IMG/VR virus record: IMGVR_UViG_3300045988_180880
Coordinates: 256,001 to 320,000 of that record
Source: a virus
Strand: one strand, 5' to 3'
DNA length: 64,000 bases
Part shown: positions 25,220-41,878 of the stretch, piece after piece
Numbering within the stretch: position 1 is the first letter of the stretch
Layout of the letters: each line of letters begins with the position of its first letter
Program-made: the position numbers and the translations under genes
Notes under the pieces: model-generated
The model's input: the letters and a program-made list of their open reading frames with translations, nothing else
Told to the model about the DNA's origin: nothing
Databases searched by the model: none

Positions 25220-25291
25220 CGCAGGATGAAAGAAATGGTATCTGACAAGTTTCATAAGCTTGGGTTGTTCGTTCGAATCGAGCTCCTGCTA
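25220..25291 (+). tRNA. tRNA with CAT anticodon (Met, fMet or Ile2), atypical
   Basis: Anticodon arm CAAGT-ttCATaa-GCTTG, T arm GTTCG-ttcgaat-CGAGC, G18 G19 present. The D stem is weak and pair 1:72 is a C/T mismatch. Confidence 0.6.
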
Positions 25292-25301
25292 CATACATAC
25301 T

Positions 25302-25415
25302 AACGATGTGATATCGTAAGTTCTTTATTGTATTTATAAAAATATAGAAGAGAGATTTAGTAAGACTCTCTTCTATTAATAAAAAAAAAAGAACTTTAAT
25401 TGATATTACGGGAAG
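25302..25415 (+). promoter_or_regulatory. conserved structured leader, copy A (tRNA to HNH gene)
   Basis: AACGATG-GTGATATC ... hairpin TAGAAGAGAG/CTCTCTTCTA ... GATATTAC-GGGAAG. It ends 16 nt before the ATG. Confidence 0.6.
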
Positions 25416-25431
25416 TAGTAAATTTAATTAT

Positions 25432-26160
25432 ATGAATAAGTACAATAAAGATGAATTAGAGAGATTAATTTTTAAAGAAAATTTATCTTATAAAGAAATT
25501 GGCAAAAAATATGGAGTATCTGGAAATACTATTAGAAAGAATGCAAAAAAGTTAGGAATAGTGTTACCTAAGAGAAGAAATATAAATCCTAATGAAACTT
25601 TTAATAAAGGAAAACAGATTCATATAGCTAACAAAAAACAAAATTCTAATAATAGTAAATTAGATCTCATATCTGATAATGATTTTATTGAAATTATCAA
25701 GACAAAGGATAATTGGAAAGATATATTAGTTTCACTTGGATATAATAAACATGGATCTAAATTTATTAGGGATAAAATAAGAAAAAGATGTTCGAATTTG
25801 GGAATAAATTTAAATCTTAAACAAAATCAACTAGATACTGTACCAATTTTATCTGTAACTAAAGGAGATTTATTTAAAAAACGTTCTAATTGGCAGAACG
25901 CTAGATCTAATATTCAAAATTCAGCAAGAAAAATATTTTTTAAGAATTGTCTTGATCCTAAATGTATAGTTTGTGGATATACTAATCATGTGGAAGTAGC
26001 ACATATAAAGGCAGTTAGTAATTTTAGTGAGGATTCATTAATATCAGAAATTAACGATATTTCTAATTTAATAGGTTTATGTCCTAATCATCATTGGGAG
26101 TATGATAATGGATTATTAGATATAAGTAAATACATAAATCATGAAAATAATAAGAAATAA
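25432..26160 (+). CDS. HNH homing endonuclease with N-terminal HTH module
   Basis: C-terminal CIVCGY...HVEVAHIKA...LCPNHHWEYDNG. The N-terminal LSYKEIGKKYGVSGNTIRKNAKKLG is shared with the 27388 and 36489 genes. Confidence 0.8.
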   Translation: MNKYNKDELERLIFKENLSYKEIGKKYGVSGNTIRKNAKKLGIVLPKRRNINPNETFNKGKQIHIANKKQNSNNSKLDLISDNDFIEIIKTKDNWKDILVSLGYNKHGSKFIRDKIRKRCSNLGINLNLKQNQLDTVPILSVTKGDLFKKRSNWQNARSNIQNSARKIFFKNCLDPKCIVCGYTNHVEVAHIKAVSNFSEDSLISEINDISNLIGLCPNHHWEYDNGLLDISKYINHENNKK

Positions 26161-26497
26161 TATTATTCCTTTTCCAGGCTATAAAGCAGTAAATATCTTT
26201 GGAATTTTATTTGTAAGGAAGAATGCTAATATAAAACCAGAAGACTTAAATCATGAAGAAATACATACAGCACAAATGAAAGAAATGGCTTATATCGGAT
26301 TTTATGTATGGTATTTCTTGGAGTGGTTATTATGTCTCCTAGTTTCAGGATTTAGCTTTGGTTATGCTTATCATGATATTAGTCTTGAGGAAGAAGCACA
26401 CTTAAATGATAAAGACCTGGAATACTTAAAAACCAGAAAACATTATTCTTGGTGGTCCTATATAAAACTAGGAAGTTGGAAGAAAAATAAAAATTAA
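26141..26497 (+). CDS. membrane protein with HExxH motif
   Basis: NHEEIHTAQ is followed by a hydrophobic segment. It overlaps the HNH gene's 3' end by 20 nt. Confidence 0.4.
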   Translation: MKIIRNNIIPFPGYKAVNIFGILFVRKNANIKPEDLNHEEIHTAQMKEMAYIGFYVWYFLEWLLCLLVSGFSFGYAYHDISLEEEAHLNDKDLEYLKTRKHYSWWSYIKLGSWKKNKN

Positions 26498-26518
26498 CCA
26501 TATATACATAAAAAGATT

Positions 26519-26833
26519 ATGATTATACTTAGAAATAAGACCTATTCGCATGAAGAAGAAATTGCGAATATTGCGGCAGCTCCTGGAAGTCCAGAGTATA
26601 GCCATGAAAGAGCCGAAATAGAAAAGAAACCGGCTCAAGAAGCATCAGCAGTTCAAGAAGGTTATGAAAAAGCATCTCAGGAAATTGATAAAACAGTAGA
26701 AGAAGTAGAAATAGTTCCTGAAGCAGCTGAAGAAGCAATCGAAACAGAAGCACGTGAAGCTGGAGATTCTAACCTAGACTCTAGAAATGATGCATTAAAA
26801 ACTCTTAATGATTTCTTAGGTAATATTCATTAA
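26519..26833 (+). CDS. acidic N-box protein
   Basis: Starts MIILRNKTYSHEEE; Glu/Ala-rich. Confidence 0.5.
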   Translation: MIILRNKTYSHEEEIANIAAAPGSPEYSHERAEIEKKPAQEASAVQEGYEKASQEIDKTVEEVEIVPEAAEEAIETEAREAGDSNLDSRNDALKTLNDFLGNIH

Positions 26834-26835
26834 TT

Positions 26836-27054
26836 ATGATTATCCTCAGGCAAAAGAATTATTCCGGCCGAGAAAAAGTACCTCAGGCTATAGCAGAGAA
26901 GGCACGAAAATCTGGAGTAGTTCAAAAAGATTCAAATGGTGCCTGGAGAATTATTAGCCTGAAAACTTCTCCGGCCGAATATTGGGATGCACATTATGAT
27001 ACCCGTGAAGATGCTGAAAAAGCTCTAGCCGCTTATCATGCAAATAAACATTAA
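26836..27054 (+). CDS. small N-box protein
   Basis: Starts MIILRQKNYSGREK. Confidence 0.5.
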   Translation: MIILRQKNYSGREKVPQAIAEKARKSGVVQKDSNGAWRIISLKTSPAEYWDAHYDTREDAEKALAAYHANKH

Positions 27055-27168
27055 GAGATTAATTTTAGAAGCGATGAAAATCGGATATTTTGAAAATTTT
27101 TACACTAGTACTTTTATCTCAGAATAAAGGAAATTGAGTAGTTATAGTGTTAGGTTTTTAACGCTTTT

Positions 27169-27251
27169 ACGGGAATGTTGGAATCGGTAGACAAGTAACT
27201 CTTAGAAAGTTATGCTAATTTAGCATGAGGGTTCGAGACCCTCTTCCCGTA
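27169..27251 (+). tRNA. trnL: tRNA-Leu (anticodon TAG), type II
   Basis: Acceptor ACGGGAA/TTCCCGT, anticodon arm TAACT-ctTAGaa-AGTTA, long variable arm TGCTAatttAGCA, T arm GAGGG-ttcgaga-CCCTC. Confidence 0.85.
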
Positions 27252-27260
27252 CGATAAGTT

Positions 27261-27368
27261 AACGATGTGAATCGATTCCTTATTAATTCATTTATATAAA
27301 ATATAGAGAGCTCGACGGGGCTCTCTTTAAGTAGAATTAATAAGATGTTGTTTATGATTCATGGGATG
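27261..27368 (+). promoter_or_regulatory. conserved structured leader, copy B
   Basis: AACGATG-TGAATC ... hairpin AGAGAGC/GCTCTCT ... GATTCA-TGGGATG. The helix sequence differs from copies A, C and D but pairing is kept. Confidence 0.55.
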
Positions 27369-27387
27369 TAACTTAGATTTTATATAA

Positions 27388-28251
27388 ATGAATGAAAGTA
27401 AATTAAGTAATGTAACAAAAGAAGAATTAGAAAAACTAATCTTTGGAGAAAAATTATCCTATGAAGAAATAGGTAGGAGATATGAAGTTTCTGGAAGTGC
27501 TATTAAAAAGAAGGCTAAAAAATTAGGTATAGAACTTCCTAAGAAAAGAGATATAAATTCTAATGAAACTTTTAATAAAGGATACTCTTTTAAGTATAAT
27601 AAGAAAGATTTAGAGAAGTATTTAGGTGAAGGAAAGAGTTATAAAGAGATTGGAAATATTTATGGAGTATCTTCATCATCTATATATAGGGCAGTTAAAA
27701 GTTTTGGATTATCACCTAAGAAAAAATCTCCTAAGAAAAAAGAGTCAAAAAATTTGAATAAACCTAAAATTATAATAAATTCTGTAGATGATAGTGTTTT
27801 TTCAGATTATGTAAAGGATAGTTTATCAATAGCAGAAGTCGCTAGATCAATTGGAATAGATAATAATAAAATTAATACTAGCGTTTATAGAGAAATTCAT
27901 AAAAGAATCGATTCTTTAAAGTTAGATACATCTCATTTTACAGGAGGTGCATGGAATGTAGGAGATAGATTTAGAAAAATAGATAAAGGATTTCCATTAA
28001 GTGAAGTTTTAGTAAAAAACTCATCATATAAATGTACTAATTCTTTAAGGAAAAAGCTATTTAATGAAGGTGTAAAAGAACGAAAGTGTGAATGTTGCGG
28101 TATAACTGAATGGAATGGAAAGCCTGCACCATTACAACTTCATCATATAGATGGAGATAATACTAATAATTCTTTAGAAAATCTTCAAATACTTTGTCCT
28201 AATTGTCATGCTCAAACAGATAATTATTGTAGTAAAAATAAAAACGTCTAA
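27388..28251 (+). CDS. HNH homing endonuclease with duplicated HTH modules
   Basis: CECCG...LQLHHIDGDNTNN...LCPNCHAQTDNY, plus two LSYEEIG / KSYKEIG HTH-like repeats. Confidence 0.8.
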   Translation: MNESKLSNVTKEELEKLIFGEKLSYEEIGRRYEVSGSAIKKKAKKLGIELPKKRDINSNETFNKGYSFKYNKKDLEKYLGEGKSYKEIGNIYGVSSSSIYRAVKSFGLSPKKKSPKKKESKNLNKPKIIINSVDDSVFSDYVKDSLSIAEVARSIGIDNNKINTSVYREIHKRIDSLKLDTSHFTGGAWNVGDRFRKIDKGFPLSEVLVKNSSYKCTNSLRKKLFNEGVKERKCECCGITEWNGKPAPLQLHHIDGDNTNNSLENLQILCPNCHAQTDNYCSKNKNV

Positions 28252-28335
28252 TATCTATACTAACCTCTTTTCCTCTTAATAATTCTCTCTAAACAAGGGG
28301 GAGGGGTAAAATAATTAACACTTTAAACAATTATT

Positions 28336-29148
28336 ATGTACATAAGAAGAAAAGTATTCTCACTATTACAAGACGGTGAGACAGGAGAAGAGAAGTATTT
28401 TTCTACGACCGATGTAACTTTGGATAATCTTGAAGAAAGAATTTTTAGTATTTCAATTCCAACTGAAGAAGAATTAGAACAAAGAGAATTCGGTGCTAGA
28501 CAGAGAAAACAGAATAGAAAACTAGCTAGATCTATTCACAATGCCGAGATGCAAGCAAATAAAGCAGCTAAGGCACAAGAAAAAGCAGCTAAAATAGTTT
28601 CTAATCCAGCTAATTTAGTTGATGAGAAGAAAATGGAAGAAGCTCAGAAACTTACTAAGAAAGCACAAAAAGCAGTTGAGTCTTCTAATCGTAATGCAGG
28701 TCAAGCTTCTCAACAAGTAAAGAATATCTCTAAAACTAGAAAGTCAGTTGCGACAAATCCGGGAGGTCTTGAAATTAAAAATCAAGGTGCAGGAGATATA
28801 ACTGTTAAGAAAGAAGGTGGTAATGTAACTGCTCATAAAATTGCTTCTAAGAAAAGTGGTCAGACAACAACTACTGTAAGAACAACGTCAACTAAGCCTG
28901 ATGTTGTAGTTGATAAGATGACATCCAAAGGTTCTAAGAAAGTTTCTACAGAGGCAGTAAAGAAATCCGCTGAGAAAACTCAAAAAGTTGCAGAAGTAGC
29001 TCAAAAAACAACAAAAGACTCAAAGAAGATTCTGAATGGGGCTAAAAAATTAATGAACACAAAAGCTGGTAAAATAGCTGGAGGAGTTGCTTTAGCTAGT
29101 GGTGCGATGATCGGGGCTAAAAAGTTATATGATCATAAAAAGAAATAA
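28336..29148 (+). CDS. Lys/Ala-rich N-box protein, paralog of 34367 gene
   Basis: MYIRRKVFSLLQD..GEEKYFSTTDVTL is shared with 34367. It has a C-terminal Gly/Ala hydrophobic segment. Confidence 0.55.
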   Translation: MYIRRKVFSLLQDGETGEEKYFSTTDVTLDNLEERIFSISIPTEEELEQREFGARQRKQNRKLARSIHNAEMQANKAAKAQEKAAKIVSNPANLVDEKKMEEAQKLTKKAQKAVESSNRNAGQASQQVKNISKTRKSVATNPGGLEIKNQGAGDITVKKEGGNVTAHKIASKKSGQTTTTVRTTSTKPDVVVDKMTSKGSKKVSTEAVKKSAEKTQKVAEVAQKTTKDSKKILNGAKKLMNTKAGKIAGGVALASGAMIGAKKLYDHKKK

Positions 29149-29158
29149 AAAAGATAAT

Positions 29159-29191
29159 CTATAGAGGTAGTGTAATCAATCTCCTCTATAG
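29159..29191 (+). terminator. hairpin CTATAGAGG/CCTCTATAG
   Basis: 33-nt element identical to the one at 34962-34994, after the paralogous gene. Confidence 0.6.
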
Positions 29192-29215
29192 AACTTAATA
29201 TAAATATTATAAAAT

Positions 29216-29659
29216 ATGAAATTTAATAAAACTCTTGAAGCTGTAAATATTATGGTTATGGCTTCTTATCCGGCCGCTAGATTCTATGAAGCGCAAGGTA
29301 TACTAATTGAAGAAAATAATAGTTTTATCCCTGAAGTTTCTGGAATGGTAATTGTTTATTCATTACCTCTTGGAAAAACGCTTCTTGTAAATGTTGCGGC
29401 CGAGTCGGAAGAAGCCTATGAATTTAAACTAATCAATGAAAACTGGCTTGAAGATAGATCTATAACTCCTTATGTAGGTATGACTCTAGAAGATGCTTTT
29501 CAAGAATTAGTTAAAGCAGAAAAGATTATTAAATCTAGAAATGTAGTTCTCAGACATCCATTACATCCATCTTATACTCGTCCTGTTTATATATTTGGTG
29601 ATGTTCGGCGAGGAGGTAATAGTGTTGATGTAATGACTGGAGAAATAAGAGAAGAATAA
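29216..29659 (+). CDS. hypothetical protein
   Basis: 147-aa ORF. Confidence 0.5.
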   Translation: MKFNKTLEAVNIMVMASYPAARFYEAQGILIEENNSFIPEVSGMVIVYSLPLGKTLLVNVAAESEEAYEFKLINENWLEDRSITPYVGMTLEDAFQELVKAEKIIKSRNVVLRHPLHPSYTRPVYIFGDVRRGGNSVDVMTGEIREE

Positions 29660-29690
29660 AAAGATTTGCTTTAGATGATTTAATAATATT

Positions 29691-30149
29691 ATGATGAAAG
29701 TTAAAAGATTTTCTCAAACTCAACCAGATATAGAGTGGCATAAAAACAATATAAATCCAAACTCAGGTAGCAATCTGGAAGATGGAAGTACTCTTTATAA
29801 AGCAAAATCTGGAGATTATCTTTATTTGTATAAAGATGGTGAATGGGTTATTATGAATGGTGTTAATAAATTTATGCAGGATTCTAAATTATATCAAATT
29901 TCAAAATTCGATAAAAACATTCATAATAAGATTGGAGCCGCAGGAGCAGTTATTGGTGGTTTTGTTGGGAGTTTGCCTGGATTAGCAATGGGTAATTTAA
30001 AAACAGCTGCTACAGGGGCTGTGATTGGATCAACTATATCTGGATTATATAATAGAAATAAAGCAAAGAAACGTGCTGAAAATATAGTAAAGGATTACGA
30101 GTCTAAGTATGGTAAGAATGCTTATACTACATTTATGAAAAAGAAGTAA
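29691..30149 (+). CDS. N-box glycine-zipper protein
   Basis: Starts MMKVKRFSQ. Contains IGAAGAVIGGFVGSLPGLAMGNLKTAATGAVIGS. Confidence 0.55.
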   Translation: MMKVKRFSQTQPDIEWHKNNINPNSGSNLEDGSTLYKAKSGDYLYLYKDGEWVIMNGVNKFMQDSKLYQISKFDKNIHNKIGAAGAVIGGFVGSLPGLAMGNLKTAATGAVIGSTISGLYNRNKAKKRAENIVKDYESKYGKNAYTTFMKKK

Positions 30150-30251
30150 ACTATCTTTAATTTTAAATTACTTTTACTATAATTGAATACCTATTCCATT
30201 TTAAGGATGTAGTAAGGAATGATATTCAGTTTATTATATATTTCTAATAAT

Positions 30252-30292
30252 AAAAAAAATGAGATACACTATTCTCACGAACTATGTATCTC
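30252..30292 (+). repeat. REP-A hairpin, copy 1
   Basis: A-run followed by GAGATACA-ctattctcacgaacta-TGTATCTC. The loop sequence is conserved in all 3 copies. Confidence 0.7.
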
Positions 30293-30326
30293 TTGGCAAG
30301 TTACTACAAAAATTAATGTAGCAAGT

Positions 30327-30358
30327 TTAATCCTCATAAAAAATGAGAATTAATTTTT
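30327..30358 (+). terminator. rho-independent-type terminator
   Basis: TTAATCCTCAT/ATGAGAATTAA hairpin followed by TTTTT. Confidence 0.5.
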
Positions 30359-30363
30359 TAAAT

Positions 30364-30383
30364 CATATATAAGGCTTTGAAGT
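30364..30383 (+). promoter_or_regulatory. promoter-like box CATATATAAGGCTTTGAAGT
   Basis: One of 4 near-identical boxes; the others directly precede tRNA genes or an ATG. Confidence 0.4.
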
Positions 30384-30427
30384 GATAAAAATAATACTGT
30401 CTTATTTTCACAAACTGTACTGCCTTT

Positions 30428-30526
30428 TACGACAAATAATAATAATAAAATTACCTTACATAGGTAATTAGTATAAGTTCCAAGTTTTATTGTAGTAAAA
30501 AACTTATACTGATTTATTCTACTACA
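30428..30526 (+). ncRNA. candidate pseudoknotted small RNA, copy X1
   Basis: Hairpins ATTACCT/AGGTAAT and TATAAGTT/AACTTATA. The second loop, GTAGTA, is complementary to the downstream TACTAC. Confidence 0.35.
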
Positions 30527-30537
30527 TACCTTAATGA

Positions 30538-30577
30538 TAAAAAATGAGATACACTATTCTCACGAACCATGTATCTC
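30538..30577 (+). repeat. REP-A hairpin, copy 2
   Basis: AAAAATGAGATACACTATTCTCACGAACCATGTATCTC. Confidence 0.7.
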
Positions 30578-30628
30578 TGCGTAGCAAATTTAATCAACAC
30601 AGATTGTGAAGATTAAATTCTTATATTA

Positions 30629-30648
30629 ACATATATAAGGCTTTGAAG
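30629..30648 (+). promoter_or_regulatory. promoter-like box CATATATAAGGCTTTGAAGT
   Basis: Ends 15 nt upstream of tRNA-Glu. Confidence 0.45.
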
Positions 30649-30663
30649 TCTTATTAAAAATGT

Positions 30664-30735
30664 GGTCCTATCGTCTATCGGTTAGGACGCGAGATTTTCA
30701 TTCTCGAAAGAGGAGTTCGATTCTCCTTAGGACTA
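30664..30735 (+). tRNA. trnE: tRNA-Glu (anticodon TTC)
   Basis: Acceptor GGTCCTA/TAGGACT (G1.U72), D stem GTCT/GGAC, anticodon arm CGAGA-ttTTCat-TCTCG, T arm AGGAG-ttcgatt-CTCCT. Confidence 0.85.
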
Positions 30736-30743
30736 CAAAAGTC

Positions 30744-30864
30744 AACGATGAGATATCGCAAAGACTTATTTAGACATGTTAATAGTGAAAAGGATAGAAT
30801 TAGCTACTCTATCCTCTCACTTTAAATCTAAGTAAGGTTACGTAATAATTGATATCTCGGGAAG
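30744..30864 (+). promoter_or_regulatory. conserved structured leader, copy C
   Basis: AACGATG-AGATATC ... hairpin GGATAGA/TCTATCC ... GATATCT-CGGGAAG. It ends 15 nt before the ATG at 30880. Confidence 0.6.
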
Positions 30865-30879
30865 TGATAATTAAATAAC

Positions 30880-31451
30880 ATGTCTAAAAATGATAAATTA
30901 TTACCTGTACCATTAAAGTACACCTATCCGGTTGTAATGGAAATTTCTCCAAGTAACAAACCATTGAAAAATTAGACATCTATTGTAATAGGTGTGGAAA
31001 GTTTTTTAAACAAACAGCCTATGATCATGTTTATGGATCTGGATGTCCTGATTGTAATAAATTAGGAGGAAAAAGCGCATTAAATGTATTAAAGTGGTTA
31101 GAAACAAATCAAATTGATTATACAAGGGAATATTCTATAAAATTAAATAATAGGAACATTAGAATAGATTATGTTTTTAATTATAATAATTGTTGTTTGT
31201 GGATAGAGTATAATGGACTACAACATTATAAGAAAGTAGATTATTTTCATAAAACAGATGAAGGTTTTCTTAAACAATTAAATAGAGATAATGAAGTTAG
31301 AAAATATTGTAAAGAGAATAATATCATCCTTATAGAAATTCCGTATACATATAACACTTATGAAAAAGTAGAACAATTATTAAATCGAGTAATTTTAAAT
31401 GGAGAGGATATAAACTCTATTATAGATTATTCAAAATTATATAAAATATGA
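30880..31451 (+). pseudogene. deleted/frameshifted zinc-ribbon + Vsr/DUF559-like homing endonuclease
   Basis: The 31-codon N-terminus MSKNDKLLPVPLKYTYPVVM matches the start of the 41879 gene, then stops at TAG 30973. The -1 frame continues from 30972 (LDIYCNRCG...GCPDCN...WIEYNGLQHY...RDNEVRKYCKENNIILIEI) to 31451. The central ~250 aa of the full-length paralog are missing. Confidence 0.6.
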
Positions 31452-33656
31452 AAAAATCAGAAACAATATTTCAAAAGTTATTTTCAGGAATTAGTTTTGG
31501 AAATTCACGTATACCTTTAATTATGTAGTAGAGGCTTAAGATAGAATAAAATCTTAAGAAAATACCTTAAAATGCTGGAAAATATAAAATATAGATCAGC
31601 ATCTCTATTTATCGATTAAAAATAGAGTTCAACGACTATAGTAGGTACTTAGATAATATAGTCTAAATTTAATAAAATATATTAAAATAAATTGTACGTT
31701 CAAATGTATTTAGTAAAGGTGGGGGAAGAGGGTATTCTGTTATTGGAGGAACTGGAAATGGAAGATTCTTAGATAATGAAAGAAATTCGCCCTTACTTGG
31801 TAATTCACAGCCTTCTTCTAGGTTATCCGGTTATCTTGATAGAATGGCAGAGCTTAGGTCATATTATCTTTTAGATATTACAAAGATGGCTACAAATTTC
31901 TTTTCAGATTATGTAGTTAATTTTATATCTCAAGATACCCAACAAATAGTTTCTGTATTAAATCCTGAAGATTCTACAAATAATGAAGCTGTAACTACTC
32001 GATTAAATGAGATTCTTTTAAAAGATATTAAAATAATTGATTATATACGAGACCATATAAATGACTATGTATTTTATGGAGGTTATTATAGTATGCTTCA
32101 AACTCAAAGAGATGAAAAAGGTCATCTTGTATTTAGAACAGAAGAACTTAATAATCCAAATGCAGTAGTTATAAAGAAGAAAAAGAACGAGGATGGAAAT
32201 ATAGAAGATATATTTTTAGCAATCGGAGATGATGGAAATCTATATGAAATTCCTAGTACTGAGGTAATATATATAAGTAATCCTAAACTTCGACTTACAA
32301 ATGATCTCGAAGAAGGATGGAAAGAAAAGTCTAAACCAGAAAAGCCAAAATTAGGAAGAAATAAGGGATCAGAAAATAGAAATAAAGTTCTTAGGAAAGA
32401 ATCATTTATGGCTTCTGAACCGTTATTTTATTCAAGTATTTTGAAGATAAAAGAATTAGTTATAAAAGAGCTTTTGATATCTCTTATTTCGTTAAGAGAT
32501 CTTTCATCGCCTCAATTATTGGGATTAAATACCGATTAAAATTTGTCGGATTAGATAAATAAAATCTAATGGAACTTTGTAAATTGCTGGAAGATCAAGT
32601 AAAGATAAATCAGCAAAAGATAGTAAAAACTACCTTCTCAACGACTAGATACAAAGAGAGAGTTTATATATAAATTCTTAAAGATATAGTCTAGTTTAAC
32701 TAAATAATTGTTAATATTCGAAAAGTGTCCCTCTAGAGACAATGAACGAATTATGCGCTCGATTACAGAAACTTGCAAACAATACGAATGAGTTGTCTTC
32801 ATTCATCACATCTCAGTTCGATGTCACCTCGTTCATTGAGTCTGCATTAACTCAAAATGTTAAGGTTTTTCCTGACTATAATAGTACCATTACCTCAAGG
32901 ACTTCACTACTCCCACTTGATAAATTAACAGACAAACTTTTAGATCTTATACAGAATCTTGATTATGTAAGAAATAGTGTTCTTTCTCCTCTTGGATTAC
33001 CATCTACTATATTAGATGGAACATCTGGCAGTAAGTGGTTAATAAATTGGCCGTCTAGAGAAGCAATTCTTTAGATAATTAGTAAGTAAATTTGGTGAAA
33101 CTATTAATACTAGTAATACCAAGCCTTAGATTAATCTAATTAAGGTATAACGAATAAAGACTTACCAACTTATAAAAAGTTGAATTTATATTCTAAACTA
33201 TAATAAAAAGATTATAGAGATATCATTGCAGTACTTCAACAGTCAGAAAGAGCTAATTCAAGAGTAACATCATTAATTTCAGGAATAAAAGATTCAATAG
33301 TAAATCTTGTTTGTAGTATTTATAAGGTAATATATAATGAAGATTTAGATCCAAGTTTAGTTCAAATTCATATATTCCAGAAAACAACTGTAGAGTATAA
33401 CAATCAGATAAATGAAGCTGAATCAGTTAGTGGTTTAGTTCAAGGTATCTCTGGAGTTTTATCTAATGCACTCCAAACTTTAGAACAAGCAACTCCATTA
33501 ATTGAACCAGAATCATATTTAAGTTATATTCAAAACTTACTTAAAGATATTGACCCAAGTACAGAATCTCTAATAAATGAAGATACGATTAAGCAGTATA
33601 TAGAATTTCTTAATCAAAAACTTCAGGCACAACGAGAACAGCTTGGACTCAGTTAA
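31448..33656 (+). CDS. portal protein (putative), 4 exons
   Basis: join(31448..31517,31695..32536,32721..33039,33229..33656), about 552 aa. The block LSPLGLPSTILDGTSGSKW-SVLQQSERANSRVTSLISGIK resembles the conserved portal stem/clip region. The ATG overlaps the stop of the upstream endonuclease remnant (ATGA). No homology search was done. Confidence 0.6.
31518..31694 (+). ncRNA. mini group I intron class A (177 nt), portal intron 1
   Basis: P1 CCUU/GAGG, P2 CUUAAGAU/AUCUUAAG, P3 UACCU/AGGUA. Core blocks P AAAUGCUGGAAA, Q GAUCAGCA, R UUCAACGACUA, S UAAUAUAGUC. It ends AAAUUG. Confidence 0.8.
32537..32720 (+). ncRNA. mini group I intron class A (184 nt), portal intron 2
   Basis: P1 CCGAU/GUCGG, P2 AUUAGAU/AUCUAAU, P3 CUUUG/CAAAG. 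Core blocks P AAAUUGCUGGAAG, Q AAUCAGCA, R UCAACGACUAGA, S AAGAUAUAGUC. It ends UAUUCG. Confidence 0.85.
33040..33228 (+). ncRNA. class B mini intron (189 nt, group I-like architecture), portal intron 3
   Basis: Shares AGUAAGUAAAUU, GGUGAAA, UAACGAAUAAAGACUUAC, AAUUUAUAUUCUAAACUAUAAUA and AUUAUAGA with the terL element. Proposed P1 is UGGU/GCCG and P2 is UCUAGAGAA/UUCUUUAGA. It ends CAUUG. Boundaries are tentative. Confidence 0.6.
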
Positions 33657-34951: not shown

Positions 34952-34961
34952 AAGAAATAAT

Positions 34962-35096: not shown

Positions 35097-35992
35097 ATGA
35101 TAGGAACAGTTAACCCATTTAGTGACCCTGAATTTAAGAAACAAATTTTAGGGAAAGAAGGGAGAGCTGTTGATGACCCGGGAGATTATGAGATTTTGCA
35201 GCCGGAAGAGGATGTATCTAAAAACCTAAAAAATATTATAGGGTCAGCTCCAGTACTCCCTAAAACGGCTCGCAATATTATTATGGATGCTAGTGCTATT
35301 GCGAGTAATCAAAAAGAACAAAAAGCACTAGAATTAACTCATAAATTGAATGAAGTCTTTACTAGTTATAATAAAGAATATAATATAGATCTTCATGTTG
35401 ATTTCGGAAGCCTCTCAAATACTTTAGTTAATGTGGCAGATCCGAAGTCTAGACATATCTTAGAATTATATGTTTCTGAGGTATTTCAAAGTATAAGACC
35501 TATTTTAATTCTCAATATGATTTCTAAACTTTGTCTTTGTATTGATTATATACTCGATCCAATGAGACTCTTTGATAGTTCACAAATGACTTTACAAGAT
35601 TCATTTATTGCCGTTAATATATCTGCGGCTTAGTTGAAATACTAAGAAAATTATACTAAAATGCTGAAAGATAGTTAAAACATAAATCAGCAAAAAGGAT
35701 TACTAATATAAATCCTTTCTCAACGACTAAATGTATAACTAAATTTGAAATATAATTTAGATGATATAGTCTAATTTAATAAAATAAATATTAAAAATAG
35801 ATATGAGAAAAAATTATGCAATTTATTCAACAATTAGAAGATATGAAGAGTCAGATAATTGTTAAAGGTTCTGATCTTGAATTGAAAAAAATTGCAGAAG
35901 AATCTGGAAATGAAGAGTTGAATAGTGAAGAGTCTAAGCAAATAGTAGCAGACTTTATGAGATTATTTCAAAAAGAACATGGAATAGAATAA
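35097..35992 (+). CDS. hypothetical morphogenesis-module protein, 2 exons
   Basis: join(35097..35614,35806..35992). The junction reads ...DSFIAV-EKIMQFIQQLEDMK.... Function unknown. Confidence 0.65.
35615..35805 (+). ncRNA. mini group I intron class A (191 nt)
   Basis: P1 CCGU/GCGG, P2 CUUAG/CUAAG, P3 UAUAC/GUAUA, P6 AGGAUU/AAUCCU. Core blocks P AAAUGCUGAAA, Q AAUCAGCA, R UCAACGACUA, S UGAUAUAGUC. It ends GAUAUG. Confidence 0.8.
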
Positions 35993-36029
35993 AAAATGAG
36001 ATACACTATTCTCACGAACTATGTATCTC
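35991..36029 (+). repeat. REP-A hairpin, copy 3
   Basis: AAAAAATGAGATACACTATTCTCACGAACTATGTATCTC, immediately after the stop codon of the 35097 gene. Confidence 0.7.
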
Positions 36030-36046
36030 TACTTTAAATTATGATA

Positions 36047-36129
36047 ATACCTACTACGACATAGGTAATTAGTACTATTTCTATATAAAAAGTGTAGTAA
36101 AGAAATAGCACTCGTTTATTCTACTACAC
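36047..36129 (+). ncRNA. candidate pseudoknotted small RNA, copy X2
   Basis: Hairpins TACCT/AGGTA and CTATTTCT/AGAAATAG; the latter differs from X1's TATAAGTT/AACTTATA but still pairs. Loop GTGTAGTA is complementary to the downstream TACTACAC. Confidence 0.35.
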
Positions 36130-36148
36130 ATATATAAGGCTTTTAAGT
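36127..36148 (+). promoter_or_regulatory. promoter-like box CACATATATAAGGCTTTTAAGT
   Basis: Lies 44 nt upstream of the Thr-Asn-Ser tRNA cluster. Confidence 0.45.
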
Positions 36149-36192
36149 TTTATGATATTTTCTGATTTATATTTCATAATTAAATCAGAATT

Positions 36193-36266
36193 GCCTCTTT
36201 AGCTCAGTTGGCCAGAGCACGTGATTTGTAATCTCGGGGTCGTTGGTTCGAATCCGACAAGAGGCT
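36193..36266 (+). tRNA. trnT: tRNA-Thr (anticodon TGT)
   Basis: Acceptor GCCTCTT/AAGAGGC, D stem GCTC/GAGC, anticodon loop ttTGTaa (one stem mismatch), T arm GTTGG-ttcgaat-CCGAC. Confidence 0.85.
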
Positions 36267-36278
36267 CAAAAATAATAT

Positions 36279-36350
36279 TCTCCGTTAGCTCAGAGGCAGA
36301 GCATTTGACTGTTAATCAAAGGGTCGGTATATCGTAATTACCACGGAGAG
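36279..36350 (+). tRNA. trnN: tRNA-Asn (anticodon GTT) with aberrant T arm
   Basis: Acceptor TCTCCGT/ACGGAGA, D stem GCTC/GAGC, anticodon arm TTTGA-ctGTTaa-TCAAA. The T arm is GGTA-tatcgtaat-TACC and lacks TTC. Confidence 0.65.
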
Positions 36351-36358
36351 CTGTTTTA

Positions 36359-36443
36359 GGAGAGGTGGCAGAGTGGTCGATTGCGGCGGTCTTGAAAACC
36401 GTTGTACTGCGAGGTACCCGGGGTTCGAATCCCTGTCTCTCCG
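36359..36443 (+). tRNA. trnS: tRNA-Ser (anticodon TGA), type II
   Basis: Acceptor GGAGAGG/TCTCTCC, anticodon arm GCGGT-ctTGAaa-ACCGT, long variable arm, T arm CGGGG-ttcgaat-CCCTG. Confidence 0.85.
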
Positions 36444-36488
36444 CAATAATTTTAAAGATAAGAAAAATTATAAAAAAAACAATTAATT

Positions 36489-37273
36489 ATGGGAAAAGAG
36501 AAATATAACAAAGAAGAATTAATAAGATTATTAATTCATGAAGGAAAATCTTATAAAGAAGTTGCAGCTATGCGGGGTGATGGAAGCACTGGAGAAGCTA
36601 TACGTAAAGCAGCAAATAGATACGGGATAAAAGTATCAGATAGAAAGAAACTAAGAAAATGTGAATATTGTGGTAAAGAGCATGATGGTTCTTTTGGTTC
36701 TGGAAGATTTTGTTGTTCAGATTGTGCAAAGAAATATTCACTTAGTTTCAGCAAAGGTAAAAAACCAGAAGATAAATCTACTAAAGAAGAAAAAGTAGAA
36801 GAGTCTGTAAAGATAGCTCCTCCTAAGGAATGTACCACTGAATTGTCTAGATTTGATGGAAAATTAACTTCAGATTTATTAGGATATGTAGGTGAATGTG
36901 CGACAATGTTTCAATTAGCAAGAGTTGGAATTATGTCATCTAAACCTTGTGGAGTAGATAGATATGATGTAATTGCAGATATAGGAGGAATACTTTATAA
37001 AATTCAGGTTAAATCTACTGCTGGCTATATTGATAAAGATGGAGCATTATCGTACAATCTTCAAAATAAATCTGGATTATATAAAAAGGTGAAGTAGATT
37101 TCTTTGCCTTGTATAATTATGTACTTGATATTATACTATTAGTTCCCTTTAGTATACTTGAAGGTAAATATAAGGTGCGTATTCATTTTGGAAAAGAAAA
37201 AGATGAATCAGATTTATTCTTTTGGAAAGATTATATTTTATTTGATGTAGCGAAATCTTTATTATCCAGTTAA
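36489..37273 (+). CDS. HTH + zinc-ribbon + PD-(D/E)xK-type homing endonuclease, needs a -1 frameshift at AAA-AAG (37083-37088)
   Basis: Frame 0 stops at TAG 37095. The -1 frame from 37088 reads [54 protein letters not shown] to TAA 37271-37273. Upstream lies [17 protein letters not shown] (D...QxK nuclease core). Confidence 0.6.
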
Positions 37274-37286
37274 TTAATAATAAGTT

Positions 37287-37368
37287 TGTGTGATACTCAA
37301 GTGGTTAACGAGGATAGACTGTAAATCTATTAGCTTTGCTTTCGGGAGTTCGAATCTCTCTCACACAA
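37287..37368 (+). tRNA. trnY: tRNA-Tyr (anticodon GTA), type II
   Basis: Acceptor TGTGTGA/TCACACA, anticodon arm ATAGA-ctGTAaa-TCTAT, long variable arm, T arm GGGAG-ttcgaat-CTCTC. Confidence 0.85.
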
Positions 37369-37388
37369 CATAAAATAAAATTATAAAT

Positions 37389-38372
37389 ATGAAAGTAAAA
37401 AGATTTAGTAAATTAGATACTCTACAAGATTCTATAAAAATTGTAAGTAAGAAAACAGGAGAATCTCTCACAATAAATAGATTTAAATCTTTTGTAGATA
37501 TTCTTGGAAAATTTATTAAGAGACTTAGAGAATGGAGTAATAAGAGACCGTCATTTGATATTTACTTAGGTTCTGAGAAAGTAGCAGAATTAAATCTTAT
37601 AGAAAAGTCCAAAGAAGAATTAAATATAATGTGGATTGAAACTTATGAAGATTATAGAGGTAAAGGATATTCTCAGGCTATTCTAACAGAGTTGATTAGA
37701 TTTGCTAAGTCTCAAGGTTATAAATATGTTACTCTTGAAGTGCCTGGTAGATCTCCTGATGCTAGACATATTTATGAGAAGCTTGGATTTAAGGATGATG
37801 GAGTCTTGACAACCCCAGAAGAAGATTTTTATTGGGGAGGTCTTACTAGAATGAAACTTAAATTGTTTGCAAATATTACTAATGTAACAAGTTTAACTCC
37901 ATTGAAAAATATAATAACAACTACTACTAGAAAAGCTACCGGACTATCTAATTCTAAAATAGCAACACAAGCAAAGAATGCAGCATTAGATTTACACTCT
38001 GTAACTAAAGATGCTCAAAATTCTTTTATATCTCCTAATGGTAATGGATATGTAACTAAAAGTTATTTTACTAAAAGACGTCCTAAAGGAAAGAAAGTTG
38101 AGTTTGTAGGAGATTTATTTGGGAATCCTAATCAATTACAGAAACCGAAAGTTATTAATAGCAGCAGTAGTAATAAAGGAGGAAATTCTTCAATTAGTAG
38201 TTTAGATGCTAAAAGAATGAATTTAAAACGGTATAATTCTCATAAAACAAGATCTTTGGAAGTAACACCTACTGCACCTGGACAAAATGAGTGGGTTAAA
38301 CGTGTAAAAACTAATGGACAAGCTAGGTGGGAAAATAATGGGTTATATATTCCTGGTTTTGAGAAATTATAA
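37389..38372 (+). CDS. N-box GNAT acetyltransferase-domain protein
   Basis: Starts MKVKRFSKLDT. GNAT motif A YRGKGYSQAILTELIRFAK and ...IYEKLGFKDDG. The C-terminal half is low-complexity. Confidence 0.65.
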   Translation: MKVKRFSKLDTLQDSIKIVSKKTGESLTINRFKSFVDILGKFIKRLREWSNKRPSFDIYLGSEKVAELNLIEKSKEELNIMWIETYEDYRGKGYSQAILTELIRFAKSQGYKYVTLEVPGRSPDARHIYEKLGFKDDGVLTTPEEDFYWGGLTRMKLKLFANITNVTSLTPLKNIITTTTRKATGLSNSKIATQAKNAALDLHSVTKDAQNSFISPNGNGYVTKSYFTKRRPKGKKVEFVGDLFGNPNQLQKPKVINSSSSNKGGNSSISSLDAKRMNLKRYNSHKTRSLEVTPTAPGQNEWVKRVKTNGQARWENNGLYIPGFEKL

Positions 38373-38392
38373 AAAGAGAAAGGATCAAAATT

Positions 38393-40490
38393 ATGATTAA
38401 TTTCACAGACCATTTTGATCCCACTAAAAATATAGAAAAAGATTTAGCAAAAGTAGATCTTAGGGATCAATACACATCATTAACAGAAGATGAAAAGATA
38501 ATGGTATTTCTTCGTCTCAAAGGATTTACACACAGACCTCCAACGATAGAAAGATTATATTCTGATGATTATTATTTAGGTAGTCAGGAATTTTTTGATC
38601 ATGGAGATGTAATATTTCCTTTTTGGAAAGATGGATTGAAGAGAATTTTTCCAAATGAAGTTACAACAGCAAAACCATTACTCTGTTTGTCAGGAGCTAT
38701 TGGTATAGGTAAGTCTACGGTATCTAAATTAGCTATGACAAATACACTAGCTAGGTTAAGTTGTATGGCTAATCCGTGGAGAACATTTAAATTAGGTAAA
38801 AAACCACTTAGTTTTATCATCTTTCATAGAGATGAAGATGTAGCAAATGCTGAATTTCGAAGATGGATGCTAGATGATGTATTAAAGCAGAGTCCATTTT
38901 TTAGAAATTTACCACACAGACATAATATAAGAATATTAACTTCTGGTCCTAGGGGTAATGTAGTATAAAAAGTTGCCCTCCATATTAAGAAATTATATGG
39001 TAATAAAGTAAGTAAATTCGGTGAAAGGATAATCCCAATACCGAGTCAAGGATCTTAGATAAATCTAAGTAATCTTTGATGTAACGAATAAAGACTTACT
39101 AACTTATATAATTATATAAGTTAAATTTATATTCTAAACTATAATAGAGTATTATAGAAATAGATTGGCAGGTGGACTAGGAACTGACTTGATTTTTGCA
39201 ATCATGTCTGAGGTCAATTTTTGGCCTAACGAAGAAAAAGCCATGGAACGTGTAAATAGTACGTATATTCGTATTACATCTCGTTTTGATGTAAAAGAAA
39301 GTTTAACATTAGCCGGAAATCTAATAATTGATAGTTCTAGTAGAGGTGCAGGTGGTCCAACTGAAATATTTCTTGAGAATGCAGAACCTCAATTTACTTG
39401 GGATTGTAGACCTTCTCATTATGAAGTTAGAAAAAATCTGTACGAACGTTCAAGGGGAATAACTTTCTCAGTTTATACTGGAGATGGTAAATATCCTCCA
39501 AGAATATTAAATAAAAATGATAAAGAAGAGAACTATAAATTAGAAGATGATCAAGACCCTGATAGAGTGGAACATGTACCTATTCAATTATTTGGAGAAT
39601 TTAAATCTGATTTGATTAAAGCTCTTCAAGATAAATCTGGTATTAATACAGGATCATCAGATAGTTTTTTTGGAGGTACTATAGAACACTTATCTAAATG
39701 TTCAACAATAAAGAATAGAATTCCTGAAATTATTACAGTTGATTTTTATGATAAAGAAGATAGGATTATTAATCATGTAGAAAAAATGATTAATCTTATT
39801 CCAAAAGGTACTCCTATATGGCTAGGTCTTGACTTAGGTGTAGTAGATGATACAACTGGAATAGCAGCAGTTAGTTTTGATCATTGGGAAAATATAAATG
39901 GTACTTTAGTTCCTAAGGTTAAATGTCATTTTGTTTTAGGTGTATCTAGGTTAGAAGGACAAGAGACGAGTTTATTTCACATAGAGCAGTTTATAGAAGA
40001 TCTTAACAAGAAATTTAATATTATAGTTAGTGCTGACCAAGCTTTTTCTAAACAAATACTTCAATATTGTGAAAGAGAAGGAATTAGAAATAATGGGAGA
40101 ATTTCTACAGATAATACTCCTTGTGAACCGGCTCTTTATTTGAAGTATATAATAAACAATGAACTTCTTGAAATTCCTGAATATAAAAGATTACAAAGAG
40201 AGGCATATGATTTAAGATATGTTGGTCCAAAACGTAAAGTAGATCATCCTAAAAAAGCATCAATATCTCCATTATTTGATAATCCTGATGGTTCTAAGCC
40301 AGGAAGCAAGGATTTATGGGATGCTTTAGCTTCTAGTGTTTATTCTTTAAAATTATCTATTGATGAAGGAGAAGAGATGGGATATTCTTCAGGAATAGCT
40401 AAACAACTCGAATCTCTTACTAAAATAACAGCGGATCCAAGAGAAGAGTCACAAAAAGAACTTCAAAACATGTTGGAAAATATATTTTAA
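38393..40490 (+). CDS. terL: terminase large subunit, 2 exons
   Basis: join(38393..38956,39168..40490). Walker A SGAIGIGKST is in exon 1. Walker B LIFAIMSE and the RNase H-like nuclease motif WLGLDLGVVDDTTGIAAVS are in exon 2. The junction reads ILTSGPRG-AGGLGTDLIFAIMSE. Confidence 0.8.
38957..39167 (+). ncRNA. class B mini intron (211 nt, group I-like architecture) in terL
   Basis: P1 GGGGU/GCCCU (U.G at the splice site), P2 CCAUAU/AUAUGG, P3 GUAAGU/ACUUAC, proposed P7 GAAUAAA/UUUAUaUUC, P8 AACUUAUAU/AUAUAAGUU, P9 CUAUAAU/AUUAUAG. It ends GAUUG. Confidence 0.65.
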
Positions 40491-40595
40491 GATTCTTTTT
40501 CCATAATATATAATCAATTCCTAGGATGGCCAGAGGAAAGTGGTCTATTGTTCGATCAAGTCCTAGGAACAGAAAAAAAAGAAAAGAGATATATT

Positions 40596-40805
40596 TCAAT
40601 CTCTTTCTTCCATACGTTTTACAAATTCCCATTCTTCTGGAGTAACATAATCCAGAACGCTTTTTGGAATTTCTACTTCTCTATCGTTTAACATTAATTT
40701 AACTTTAACAAATAATTTATTAGGAGTAATATCTACATCAGTTACTACTCCATAAAATCCTGTTTTACGAGATTTAACTTTATCTCCTACTTTTAAATTT
40801 TTCAT
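40596..40805 (-). CDS. small hypothetical protein, lone minus-strand gene in the plus-strand module
   Basis: 69-aa ORF; GDKVKSRKTGFYGVV resembles a KOW/SH3-like beta motif. Confidence 0.45.
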   Translation of the reverse strand: MKNLKVGDKVKSRKTGFYGVVTDVDITPNKLFVKVKLMLNDREVEIPKSVLDYVTPEEWEFVKRMEERD

Positions 40806-40826
40806 AATTTTCTATATTTATTATTA

Positions 40827-40846
40827 CACATATAAGGTTTTTAGAG
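40827..40846 (+). promoter_or_regulatory. promoter-like box CACATATAAGGTTTTTAGAG
   Basis: Ends 3 nt before the ATG at 40850. Confidence 0.4.
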
Positions 40847-40849
40847 CTT

Positions 40850-41218
40850 ATGATAATACTACGAAAACAAAAATATAAAGAACTTCCCTGGACCAAAGAA
40901 AATATAGAAAAATATAAGTCACAGGAGAATATGTTAAAGCACGCAAGAAATACACCAGGAAAAACGGCTGGAAAATTATTAATAAACCCAGCCAAAGATG
41001 AGTTGGTGGGATATATAGCGTGCGAAGAAGATACTATTATTGCTCTAGAAGTTTCTCCGGGGTATAGAGGAAAAGGAATAGCAACTGATTTGATAAATTC
41101 TTCTGGGGCTAATAAACTTACAGTATCAAAGAAAAATATAAATGCGATAAATTTATATAAGAAACTTGGATTTGAAATTATATCAGAAACTCCAAAAATA
41201 TATTTTATGGAGAAATGA
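40850..41218 (+). CDS. N-box GNAT acetyltransferase
   Basis: Starts MIILRKQKYKEL. Contains YRGKGIATDLIN and NLYKKLGFE. Confidence 0.65.
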   Translation: MIILRKQKYKELPWTKENIEKYKSQENMLKHARNTPGKTAGKLLINPAKDELVGYIACEEDTIIALEVSPGYRGKGIATDLINSSGANKLTVSKKNINAINLYKKLGFEIISETPKIYFMEK

Positions 41219-41219
41219 T

Positions 41220-41291
41220 TGAACTATAGTATAATTGGCAATACACCAGATTTTGGTTCTGGGATTTCCTGTTCGAGTCAGGATAGTTCAA
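41220..41291 (+). tRNA. trnQ: tRNA-Gln (anticodon TTG)
   Basis: Acceptor TGAACTA/TAGTTCA, D arm GTAT-aattggca-ATAC, anticodon arm CCAGA-ttTTGgt-TCTGG, T arm TCCTG-ttcgagt-CAGGA. Confidence 0.85.
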
Positions 41292-41322
41292 CGAAAGAAA
41301 ATAATAATAACTAATAAAAACT

Positions 41323-41640
41323 ATGTTGAGAGTTAAAAGATTTAGTAAAGTTACTGATAAAGTTAAAGAAATAGGAAAATCTATTGAACATACAGTAACT
41401 CATCCTAAAGAAACTGGTAAGAAGGTGGTGGAGTATGTAAAGAAACACCCAGATGAAGCTATAATTCTTGGGACATCTGATATTGTTCCTGGAGTTGTTG
41501 CTGCCAAACTTGCAAAAGCTGGAAAAACAAAACAAGCAGCTATCGCAGGAACTATTGCAGCACTTCCTATTGGTGGTGCATATGTATCAGGGAAAATAGC
41601 TATTCGAAAATGGAATGAAAAAAGAAAGAAGAATAAATAG
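41323..41640 (+). CDS. small N-box protein with Gly/Ala hydrophobic segment
   Basis: Starts MLRVKRFSKVTD. Contains AAIAGTIAALPIGGAYVSG. Confidence 0.55.
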   Translation: MLRVKRFSKVTDKVKEIGKSIEHTVTHPKETGKKVVEYVKKHPDEAIILGTSDIVPGVVAAKLAKAGKTKQAAIAGTIAALPIGGAYVSGKIAIRKWNEKRKKNK

Positions 41641-41648
41641 AATAGATT

Positions 41649-41721
41649 CGAGATGTAGTTCAGTAGATAGAACGCTTGGTTTGGGACCAAGAAGTCGCAC
41701 GTTTGAGCCGTGTCATCTCGA
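41649..41721 (+). tRNA. trnP: tRNA-Pro (anticodon TGG)
   Basis: Acceptor CGAGATG/CATCTCG, D stem GTTC/GAAC, anticodon arm CTTGG-ttTGGga-CCAAG, T arm GCACG-tttgagc-CGTGT. Confidence 0.85.
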
Positions 41722-41734
41722 CCTAGATAAATAG

Positions 41735-41862
41735 ACGATGAGATATCGTGGAATTACTAACATGAATTATAAACCTTTAGGAAGAGTAAAAGTCGCGAGT
41801 TACTCTTCCACTACTAAGGATGACATGTTAATAATACAAGGATAGTTTGATATCTCGGGAAG
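41735..41862 (+). promoter_or_regulatory. conserved structured leader, copy D
   Basis: ACGATG-AGATATC ... hairpin GGAAGAGTAA/TTACTCTTCC ... GATATCT-CGGGAAG. It ends 16 nt before the ATG. Confidence 0.6.
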
Positions 41863-41878
41863 CTATAAAATTTAATTC

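Follow-up and report, generated by a model that had tools for sequence, protein, structure and literature searches.

The window analysed here comprises 64,000 nucleotides (nt) of the IMG/VR viral record IMGVR_UViG_3300045988_180880 (positions 256,001-320,000), and all coordinates below count within this whole stretch. Its plus strand carries ten tRNA genes. Four of these, called by ARAGORN as tRNA-Met(CAT) (25220-25292), tRNA-Leu(TAG) (27169-27252), tRNA-Glu(TTC) (30664-30736) and tRNA-Pro(TGG) (41649-41723), are each followed by one copy of a structured RNA, which we call the leader, and then by an endonuclease open reading frame (ORF), all on the plus strand. Leaders A, B, C and D occupy positions 25298-25420, 27255-27375, 30741-30868 and 41731-41866 and precede, respectively, gene A (25432-26160; 242 amino acids (aa)), whose stop overlaps the start of the next gene (26141), gene B (27388-28251; 287 aa), a remnant of gene C (30880-31451) and gene D (41879-43327; 482 aa). 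The tRNAs of this phage end in stem-A-C and do not encode CCA. GC content in the window is 31%. A/U-rich sequence precedes its ORFs, 69% of which have an A at position -3, and a Shine-Dalgarno (SD)-like motif is present in only 5 of 58. An original prediction made from the sequence alone had placed four such elements at these sites, with GGGAAG 15-19 nt before the ATG; both the sites and the distance proved accurate. L-numbered names below denote related viral contigs that were compared with the window.

The leader is a folded RNA of about 120-140 nt, and minimum free energy (MFE) prediction yields one common architecture for all four window copies, with z-scores of -2.9 to -4.6 relative to dinucleotide shuffles. 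From 5' to 3' it consists of an outer helix P1, an asymmetric internal loop (5' ACGAU, 3' GGGA(A/U)G), a helix P2 (GAGAUAUC/GAUAUCUC and variants) and a variable rod capped by an apical hairpin. P1 comprises 4-7 base pairs (bp) and covaries, with variants such as UACUA/UAGUA, UAAGUUA/UAACUUA, GUCA/UGAU and AUAG/CUAU. In leader A, P1 is formed by 25298-25302/25416-25420, the loop by ACGAU at 25303-25307 and GGGAAG at 25410-25415, and P2 by 25308-25315/25402-25409. The corresponding segments of leader B are 27255-27261/27369-27375, 27262-27266 and 27363-27368 (ACGAU and GGGAUG), and 27267-27273/27356-27362. Those of leader C are 30741-30744/30865-30868, 30745-30749 and 30859-30864 (ACGAU and GGGAAG), and 30750-30757/30851-30858, and those of leader D are 41731-41734/41863-41866, 41735-41739 and 41857-41862 (ACGAU and GGGAAG), and 41740-41747/41849-41856. 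P1 ends 11-14 nt 5' of the ATG, and both this spacer and the AUG are unpaired in the MFE folds, which leaves the start codon free, unlike in the T4 precedent. The long-range helix of the original prediction corresponds to P2 and was correctly paired there, to which we add P1 and one G.U pair that lengthens P2. The central hairpin described there does differ in sequence in each of the four copies; it is not a lone hairpin, since the interior of the rod forms a continuous imperfect helix of 45-55 bp.

A descriptor requiring P1, ACGA., P2 and GGGA.G matched four times in the 64 kb, exactly at the four leader sites on the plus strand, and gave zero matches on the minus strand of the window. A covariance model built from 14 sequences, none of them copy B, recovered the held-out copy B at 48.1 bits (E 1e-7), and leaders A, C and D score 101.8, 123.1 and 96.8 bits. 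Nothing else convincing was found in the window beyond the known leaders when the model was run with its filters off, and a scan of the window for the loop motif that did not require P1 and permitted short hairpins revealed no extra copies. The apical loop of leader A (25350-25380) is swapped for its near reverse complement in some genomes (AUUUAGUAAGA vs UCUUAUUAAAU; comparison of L010, L014, L019, L032, L039 and L040), and this flip at an inverted repeat indicates that the loop sequence seems unconstrained in copy A. The run of A residues 3' of the hairpin of leader A likewise varies in length among genomes.

Relatives of the leader were then collected from other viral genomes. Scanning IMG/VR with a sequence pattern yielded 23 true copies, mostly in one uncultivated phage group with contigs of ~290-380 kb, and protein-anchored retrieval together with model searches supplied the additional leader types B', B'', C2-C5, E, F, G and H as well as further D-type copies (L044, L053, L075). 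The F, G and H types occur in unrelated contigs of 10-122 kb (L081, L238, L097, L106); a scan of viral contigs for these three types gave one new copy (L238) among 87 mostly unrelated matches. The strict leader pattern matched 88 times in bacterial and archaeal genomes, in each case by chance. The leader belongs to a clade of jumbo phages that are AT-rich and uncultivated, with contigs of ~290-400 kb, and to a few phages besides. The nearest cultured phages, judged by the SbcC-like protein, are only 23-26% identical.

The ~38 distinct relatives, drawn from at least six phage lineages, preserve the fold, and at the point where 27 distinct copies had been collected, all 27 folded as P1-loop-P2-rod by MFE. 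RNAalifold recovered P1, P2 and the apical stem from a plain MAFFT alignment, with compensatory changes in 15 of 22 pairs. In an alignment of 38 distinct sequences to the model, 96.2% of cells were paired vs 34-51% in slid controls, double changes occurred in 16 of 21 pairs and the covariation score was 0.66 vs ~0.10; as this alignment had been fitted to the structure, its paired percentage is inflated, while the contrast in the unfitted MAFFT alignment is unaffected. In 18 of 21 variants the plus-strand fold is more stable than that of the minus strand; the mean difference is 8 kcal/mol and stems from the 1-11 G.U pairs that each copy contains. In addition, reverse-strand covariance-model scores are much lower. 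This strand specificity indicates that the constraint acts on plus-strand RNA rather than on duplex or cruciform DNA, and the conserved, covarying RNA structure that had been predicted is borne out. Within the internal loop, the consensus is A-(C/U)-G-A-(U/A) on the 5' side and (G/U/A)-G-G-A-(A/U)-G on the 3' side, with seven invariant nucleotides (5' A, G and A; 3' G, G, A and G). Variant 5' strands include AUGAUGA in L042 and ACGAA (ACGAAG) in the E type, whose helix is GAAAUAUC/GGUAUUUC. Judged from the loop sequence, tandem sheared G.A pairs are possible.

The genes behind the leaders belong to PHROG homing-endonuclease families and encode two unrelated kinds of protein. Protein A has an N-terminal helix-turn-helix (HTH) followed by HNH_2, and protein B has HTH repeats and an HNH domain; the two have a common HTH N-terminus. 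C and D instead carry DUF723/DUF4379 zinc fingers, D being of the DUF723/zinc-ribbon type and C having a zinc finger with a C-terminal nuclease-like domain, and protein D has no similarity to protein B. Barth et al. (PMC10448857) describe such zinc fingers as modules with which homing endonucleases bind DNA. A PDB sequence search with a D-family profile returned nothing. For the C-terminal domain of C and D, Pfam gave no match; Foldseek gave weak but consistent matches to PD-(D/E)XK nucleases (Bax1, TnsA, RecU, Can2 and Cas4), none of them with E <= 0.001. The domain is therefore probably of the PD-(D/E)XK type, and the label "Vsr-like" that had been attached to C and D is weakly supported. 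The enzymes are thus predicted to be small HNH or PD-(D/E)XK-like nucleases with their own HTH or zinc-finger modules, and Pfam detected no RuvC domain in them. Gene C, which had been listed with D as a zinc-ribbon/Vsr-like enzyme gene, is in fact a deletion remnant, frameshifted because ~815 nt, still present in L031, L033, L035 and L041, have been lost at 30965-30974.

The proposal that one leader is common to unrelated nuclease families was upheld by these assignments and by contig L051, in which a B-type leader (9859) precedes a 592-aa DUF723 enzyme, so that leader types and nuclease types have been recombined. The leader is nevertheless not a general property of either nuclease family. 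No leader copy was found at 82 loci from other phages that carry HNH relatives of A and B, and other DUF723-type endonuclease genes of the same phages have a different ~90-nt rod that ends 20-25 nt before the ATG. The leader is accordingly a clade-specific 5' module. This rod is one of several differing long 5' hairpins that such genes carry in L067, L070, L074, L078 and L100 (~160 nt upstream of ORF starts) and in L073 and L083, and it may represent a second leader family.

Presence/absence comparisons revealed that leader and gene move as one unit. We mapped 16 related contigs (L028-L043; 14 at 97-100% and two at 67% identity of the query protein) to positions 24000-44000 of the window. At three sites (Met, Leu and Ser-like), a contig had either both the leader and the endonuclease gene or neither of them. 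Leader A and HNH gene A are both found in L030, L032, L037, L039 and L040 and both missing from ten others; six contigs have leader B together with HNH gene B, and the rest have neither. At the Ser-like site the window itself is the empty allele, and nine contigs (including L028, 7583-8323) carry a B' leader and an HNH gene of ~200 aa inserted exactly 3' of a tRNA-Ser(GCU)-like cloverleaf. A cassette contains the leader and the ORF only. It begins directly after the 3' end of the tRNA, or of a tRNA-like hairpin, and ends at the ORF stop, which overlaps the next gene; at empty sites the next gene begins 17-22 nt past the tRNA. From this co-presence and the position of the 5' boundary, we conclude that the leader is the 5' module of a mobile free-standing homing-endonuclease cassette, as the original prediction had listed among its possible roles.

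The flanks of the cassettes carry further signs of homing. The alleles of tRNA-Met(CAT) and tRNA-Leu(TAG) that are linked to cassettes A and B (25220-25292 and 27169-27252) are wholly unlike those in genomes without the endonuclease gene (L033 7711-7784, L037 9820-9907), although the genomes are 97-100% identical elsewhere, and such differences suggest co-conversion tracts. The tRNA-Met of the window scores only 37.9 bits in Rfam, and two more distant contigs, L042 and L043, have a tRNA-Met of its type but no cassette behind it. In the same two contigs, which are otherwise 75-90% identical to the window, cassette D and its flanks (41212-44000) are 99.4% identical. Presence/absence polymorphism, DNA-binding nuclease domains, apparent co-conversion of flanks and lateral spread, the hallmarks of a homing cassette, were therefore all observed.

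Decay of the cassettes was also observed. In addition to the gene C remnant of the window, L037 retains leader C4 next to a nearly fully deleted gene. A natural 18-nt deletion in leader D removes the 5' strand of P1 together with ACGAUG in at least six contigs; it accompanies an intact gene D in L054 (2142-2279) and an internally deleted gene D, lacking window positions 42000-43177, in L051 (16026-16163) and L085-L088. L088 has an additional GGGAAG to GAGAAG change in leader D. Among D-type cassettes whose proteins are 36-41% identical, nucleotide identity is 0.68-0.76 in the leader vs 0.59-0.62 in the ORF.

Every leader copy lies 2-8 nt behind either a tRNA or a hairpin of the form UC-stem-GA|AC. 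The original prediction had tied the leader to tRNA genes, which is accurate for the four window copies; however, the link, though frequent, is not obligatory, for a hairpin that is no tRNA precedes at least eight of the leader variants (examples are L044 ~9812-9846, L097, L106, L081 and L238). Each copy that lacks an upstream tRNA has such a UC-stem-loop-stem-GA hairpin followed by AC, and some of these bear a T-arm-like GTTCGAT loop. Since the cassette stands immediately 3' of a tRNA or a minihelix-like hairpin, the leader would be transcribed within a tRNA(-like)-endonuclease co-transcript. Hairpins of the same form also stand alone between genes on the plus strand of the window, at 24794-24825, 29158-29194, 34961-34997 and 40519-40570. 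Their stems covary between sites, two of them are identical and lie ~10 nt past a stop codon, and they may be tRNA-minihelix-like punctuation signals or terminators.

We compared the leader with known RNA families and motifs. Searches of Rfam 15 with the window and with a single element, at gathering as well as permissive thresholds (E <= 10), returned only tRNAs and chance matches, and no ribozyme family matched even at E <= 10. An assignment to the hepatitis delta virus (HDV)-like or theta ribozymes was rejected, as the leader has no pseudoknot, its 3' strand GGGAAG contains no C and only ~20 nt precede the rod. For the hammerhead, the loop is flanked by two helices rather than set in a three-way junction, and ACGAU/GGGA(A/U)G does not correspond to the CUGANGA/GAAA core. 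Hairpin-ribozyme and loop-E readings of the basal loop were checked by hand, and neither fits all copies. The 5' strand ACGAUGA resembles a C box and tandem G.A pairs can be drawn in the loop; on inspection, though, the C-helix register of a kink-turn (K-turn) or box C/D motif works in copy A only (UACU/AGUA) and fails in B, C and D. An upstream ORF starting at the AUG of ACGAUG was discarded, as copies A and B read AUG-UGA and the E type has ACGAAG. A role for GGGAAG as an SD sequence is at odds with its spacing of 15-19 nt and with the near-absence of SD motifs in this phage, and a promoter within the rod is at odds with the lack of a consistent motif across leader types.

The structure of the leader and its mobility are solid, and from them we infer a mechanism. 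We propose that the leader is a cis-acting post-transcriptional processing and insulation element that also limits nuclease expression, a reading to which we assign a probability of roughly one half. In this scheme the self-contained rod would allow the stable RNA upstream to fold and to mature at its 3' end undisturbed by the inserted gene, and an endoribonuclease (an RNase III-like enzyme or some other enzyme of host or phage) would recognise or cleave the basal P1-loop-P2 unit. A cut at the basal unit would free a tRNA with a short trailer and leave the endonuclease mRNA with an A/U-rich leader of ~20 nt, like the native leaders of 17-22 nt found behind tRNAs. In an uncut transcript, nuclease synthesis would be kept low by the stable helix that ends 11-14 nt short of the AUG, this phage making no use of SD sequences. 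An RNase III site needs at least ~20 bp of quasi-continuous double-stranded RNA with an internal loop between functional RNAs; a rod of 35-50 bp with an internal loop between tRNA and ORF provides this, although such a structure is not specific to RNase III. Position argues for a punctuation or insulation role, the leader being located between a stable RNA that needs 3' maturation and an ORF without an SD sequence. Moreover, to our knowledge no cis sequence is required for homing as such, whereas conservation of the leader equals or exceeds that of the ORF among the D-type cassettes compared, which points to a constraint on expression or on harmlessness to the host phage. The endonuclease start regions are also somewhat less accessible than those of other window genes (2nd-22nd percentile at positions -15 to -1).

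Several points weigh against this proposal. The processing step within it is conjecture. Native genes sit behind tRNAs without any such rod, so that the rod is not required for expression as such, and the accessibility difference is modest. The 18-nt deletion persists in its at least six contigs, one of them with an intact gene D, and the basal motif is thus inessential to the phage and not immediately needed for retention of the gene. In addition, a rod leader of another kind stands before other DUF723-type endonuclease genes of these phages, and the conserved loop, with its invariant purines, could be a protein operator just as well as a cleavage site. We also considered an extended form of the proposal, which we regard as doubtful, in which both strands of the basal loop are cut, either through self-cleavage or by an RNase of host or phage, and the whole rod is excised as a "neutralising" device for a selfish gene that has no intron. 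Excision of this kind would release a correctly ended tRNA or tRNA-like hairpin and an endonuclease mRNA with a short leader, the cassette would be tolerated in tRNA arrays at nearly no cost, and the stable hairpin, once excised, might itself serve some function.

Among the alternatives, the one that survives best, though we still consider it unlikely, is a pure translational attenuator of the T4 type, in which the rod 11-14 nt before the AUG would hinder loading of the 30S subunit on an SD-less, A/U-rich region with no cleavage involved, and a potentially toxic nuclease would be held at a low level. In T4, 5' hairpins are believed to hold back expression of I-TevI, I-TevII, I-TevIII, MobE and segB (PMC2330249, discussion). 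The lack of SD motifs in the present phage, the below-average accessibility of the endonuclease start regions and the long 5' hairpins of another family borne by other endonuclease genes of the same phages all accord with such restraint. However, a T4-type repressor stem sequesters the ribosome-binding site or the start codon, and here P1 ends upstream, leaving the AUG and the preceding 11-14 nt outside any helix. A steric block would need neither an invariant internal loop nor a P1 that covaries across lineages, and the accessibility difference is small.

Another alternative is that the leader serves as an operator to which an RNA-binding protein, encoded by phage or host, binds in trans; the protein would recognise the loop and the semi-conserved P2 beside it and impose joint timing or repression on all cassettes. 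The seven invariant loop nucleotides, the C-box-like 5' strand (ACGAUGA, or AUGAUGA in L042), the possible tandem sheared G.A pairs and the occurrence of one motif with unrelated nucleases, which fits a common external factor, are in keeping with this idea. We nonetheless judge it improbable: the loop motif was found nowhere else in the 64-kb window, so that no wider regulon is visible, the K-turn register (a 3-nt bulge and C helix) fits copy A only, and no candidate protein was identified.

A new self-cleaving ribozyme that cuts near its own 5' end and trims the tRNA 3' trailer is very unlikely. Its position 2-8 nt after CCA-less phage tRNAs does parallel that of the HDV-like theta ribozymes (PMC10879173), and it has conserved unpaired nucleotides between covarying helices. 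Yet only ~7 nucleotides are invariant, all of them in a single internal loop, the structural and Rfam comparisons above yielded neither an HDV-like catalytic C on the 3' strand nor a hammerhead core, and the 18-nt deletion of the 5' core persists beside an apparently normal tRNA-Pro. Least credible of all are a DNA-level role (a cruciform or hairpin as a recombination or homing site, or shared homology for nuclease swapping), despite the inversion of the leader A apical loop at an inverted repeat, the recombination of leader types with different ORFs and 6-nt palindromes in some apical loops (UCGCGA, UAGCUA), given that the G.U pairs and the better plus-strand folds are unexpected for duplex or cruciform DNA, and an omega-RNA-like guide, given that 8-mer matches between leader and empty site were at chance level, that the enzymes are small, with DNA-binding modules of their own and no RuvC domain, and that one RNA serving unrelated nucleases argues against a dedicated scaffold.

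The general theme is known from other phages and mobile elements. Omega RNA, or HEARO, of IscB is tied to one protein family with RuvC and HNH domains and carries a guide. The leader is like it in being a structured RNA directly upstream of, and mobile with, a nuclease gene at the 5' boundary of the element; it differs in that its nucleases are unrelated classical homing enzymes and in having no guide-like target match. RNase III sites of the T7 type are irregular intercistronic hairpins of ~50-60 nt with a conserved asymmetric internal loop in mid-stem, at which cleavage sets mRNA ends and can modulate translation. They share with the leader a varying sequence, a kept structure and the asymmetric internal loop, whereas the loop of the leader is located at the base of a much longer rod and its processing is a proposal. 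Theta ribozymes are minimal double pseudoknots of ~50-60 nt with a catalytic C. These HDV-like ribozymes occur downstream of gut-phage tRNAs and are proposed to process tRNA 3' trailers (PMC10879173). Like them, the leader is a cis RNA within a few nt of phage tRNA 3' ends, including those of Met and Leu tRNAs; unlike them, it is tied to endonuclease genes, and its fold is a nested rod that lacks HDV features and matches no Rfam family. Closest in genetic setting is T4 segB, a free-standing GIY-YIG homing endonuclease gene in the T4 tRNA cluster, which is co-transcribed with tRNAs, has a proposed inhibitory 5' hairpin, yields an mRNA that is cut during tRNA maturation and shows co-conversion of flanking tRNAs (PMC2330249). 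The present cassettes resemble segB in placing an endonuclease gene among phage tRNA genes and in the pattern of flanking tRNA co-conversion. The segB hairpin sequesters both SD and AUG, whereas here the AUG lies outside the structure, and the leader is a rod of 120-140 nt with a basal loop and outer helix that is common to several cassettes and nuclease families and marks the 5' boundary of the cassette.

Against this background, segB-like endonuclease genes in tRNA clusters and cis RNAs 3' of gut-phage tRNAs are established, and what is new is a covariation-supported RNA family without an Rfam match, with a distinctive basal motif, that forms the 5' edge of a cassette and has been swapped among nuclease families. 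A free-standing homing endonuclease gene is generally taken to require nothing in cis apart from its promoter and ribosome-binding site; here a large covarying RNA travels with such genes and is retained while the nuclease domain is exchanged. If the leader is indeed a processing and insulation module, it would show how selfish genes can colonise tRNA arrays and leave them undamaged, and it would constitute a second kind of tRNA-trailer element beside the theta ribozymes. The leader also offers a ready marker for such cassettes in metagenomes and a compact RNA with a directly testable conserved loop.

Another homing-endonuclease-like ORF of the window, assigned to phrog_559 (58877-60175, plus strand, 432 aa), has no leader and is preceded by a 14-bp hairpin at ~58826-58858. 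Two further plus-strand ORFs start behind tRNAs without a leader, a PD-(D/E)XK_5 ORF (36489-37097) 45 nt after tRNA-Ser and a GNAT ORF (37389-38372) 20 nt after tRNA-Tyr, which indicates that genes directly behind tRNAs are normal in this phage. The tRNA-Ser(GCU)-like cloverleaf at the B' site (24683-24771, plus strand), directly 3' of which the empty site lies (24772/24773), is unannotated and was called neither by ARAGORN nor by the Rfam tRNA model. It is of class II, with the anticodon loop CUGCUAA and a long variable arm, and it is conserved in L049 (414-506), where the anticodon stem carries a compensatory change.

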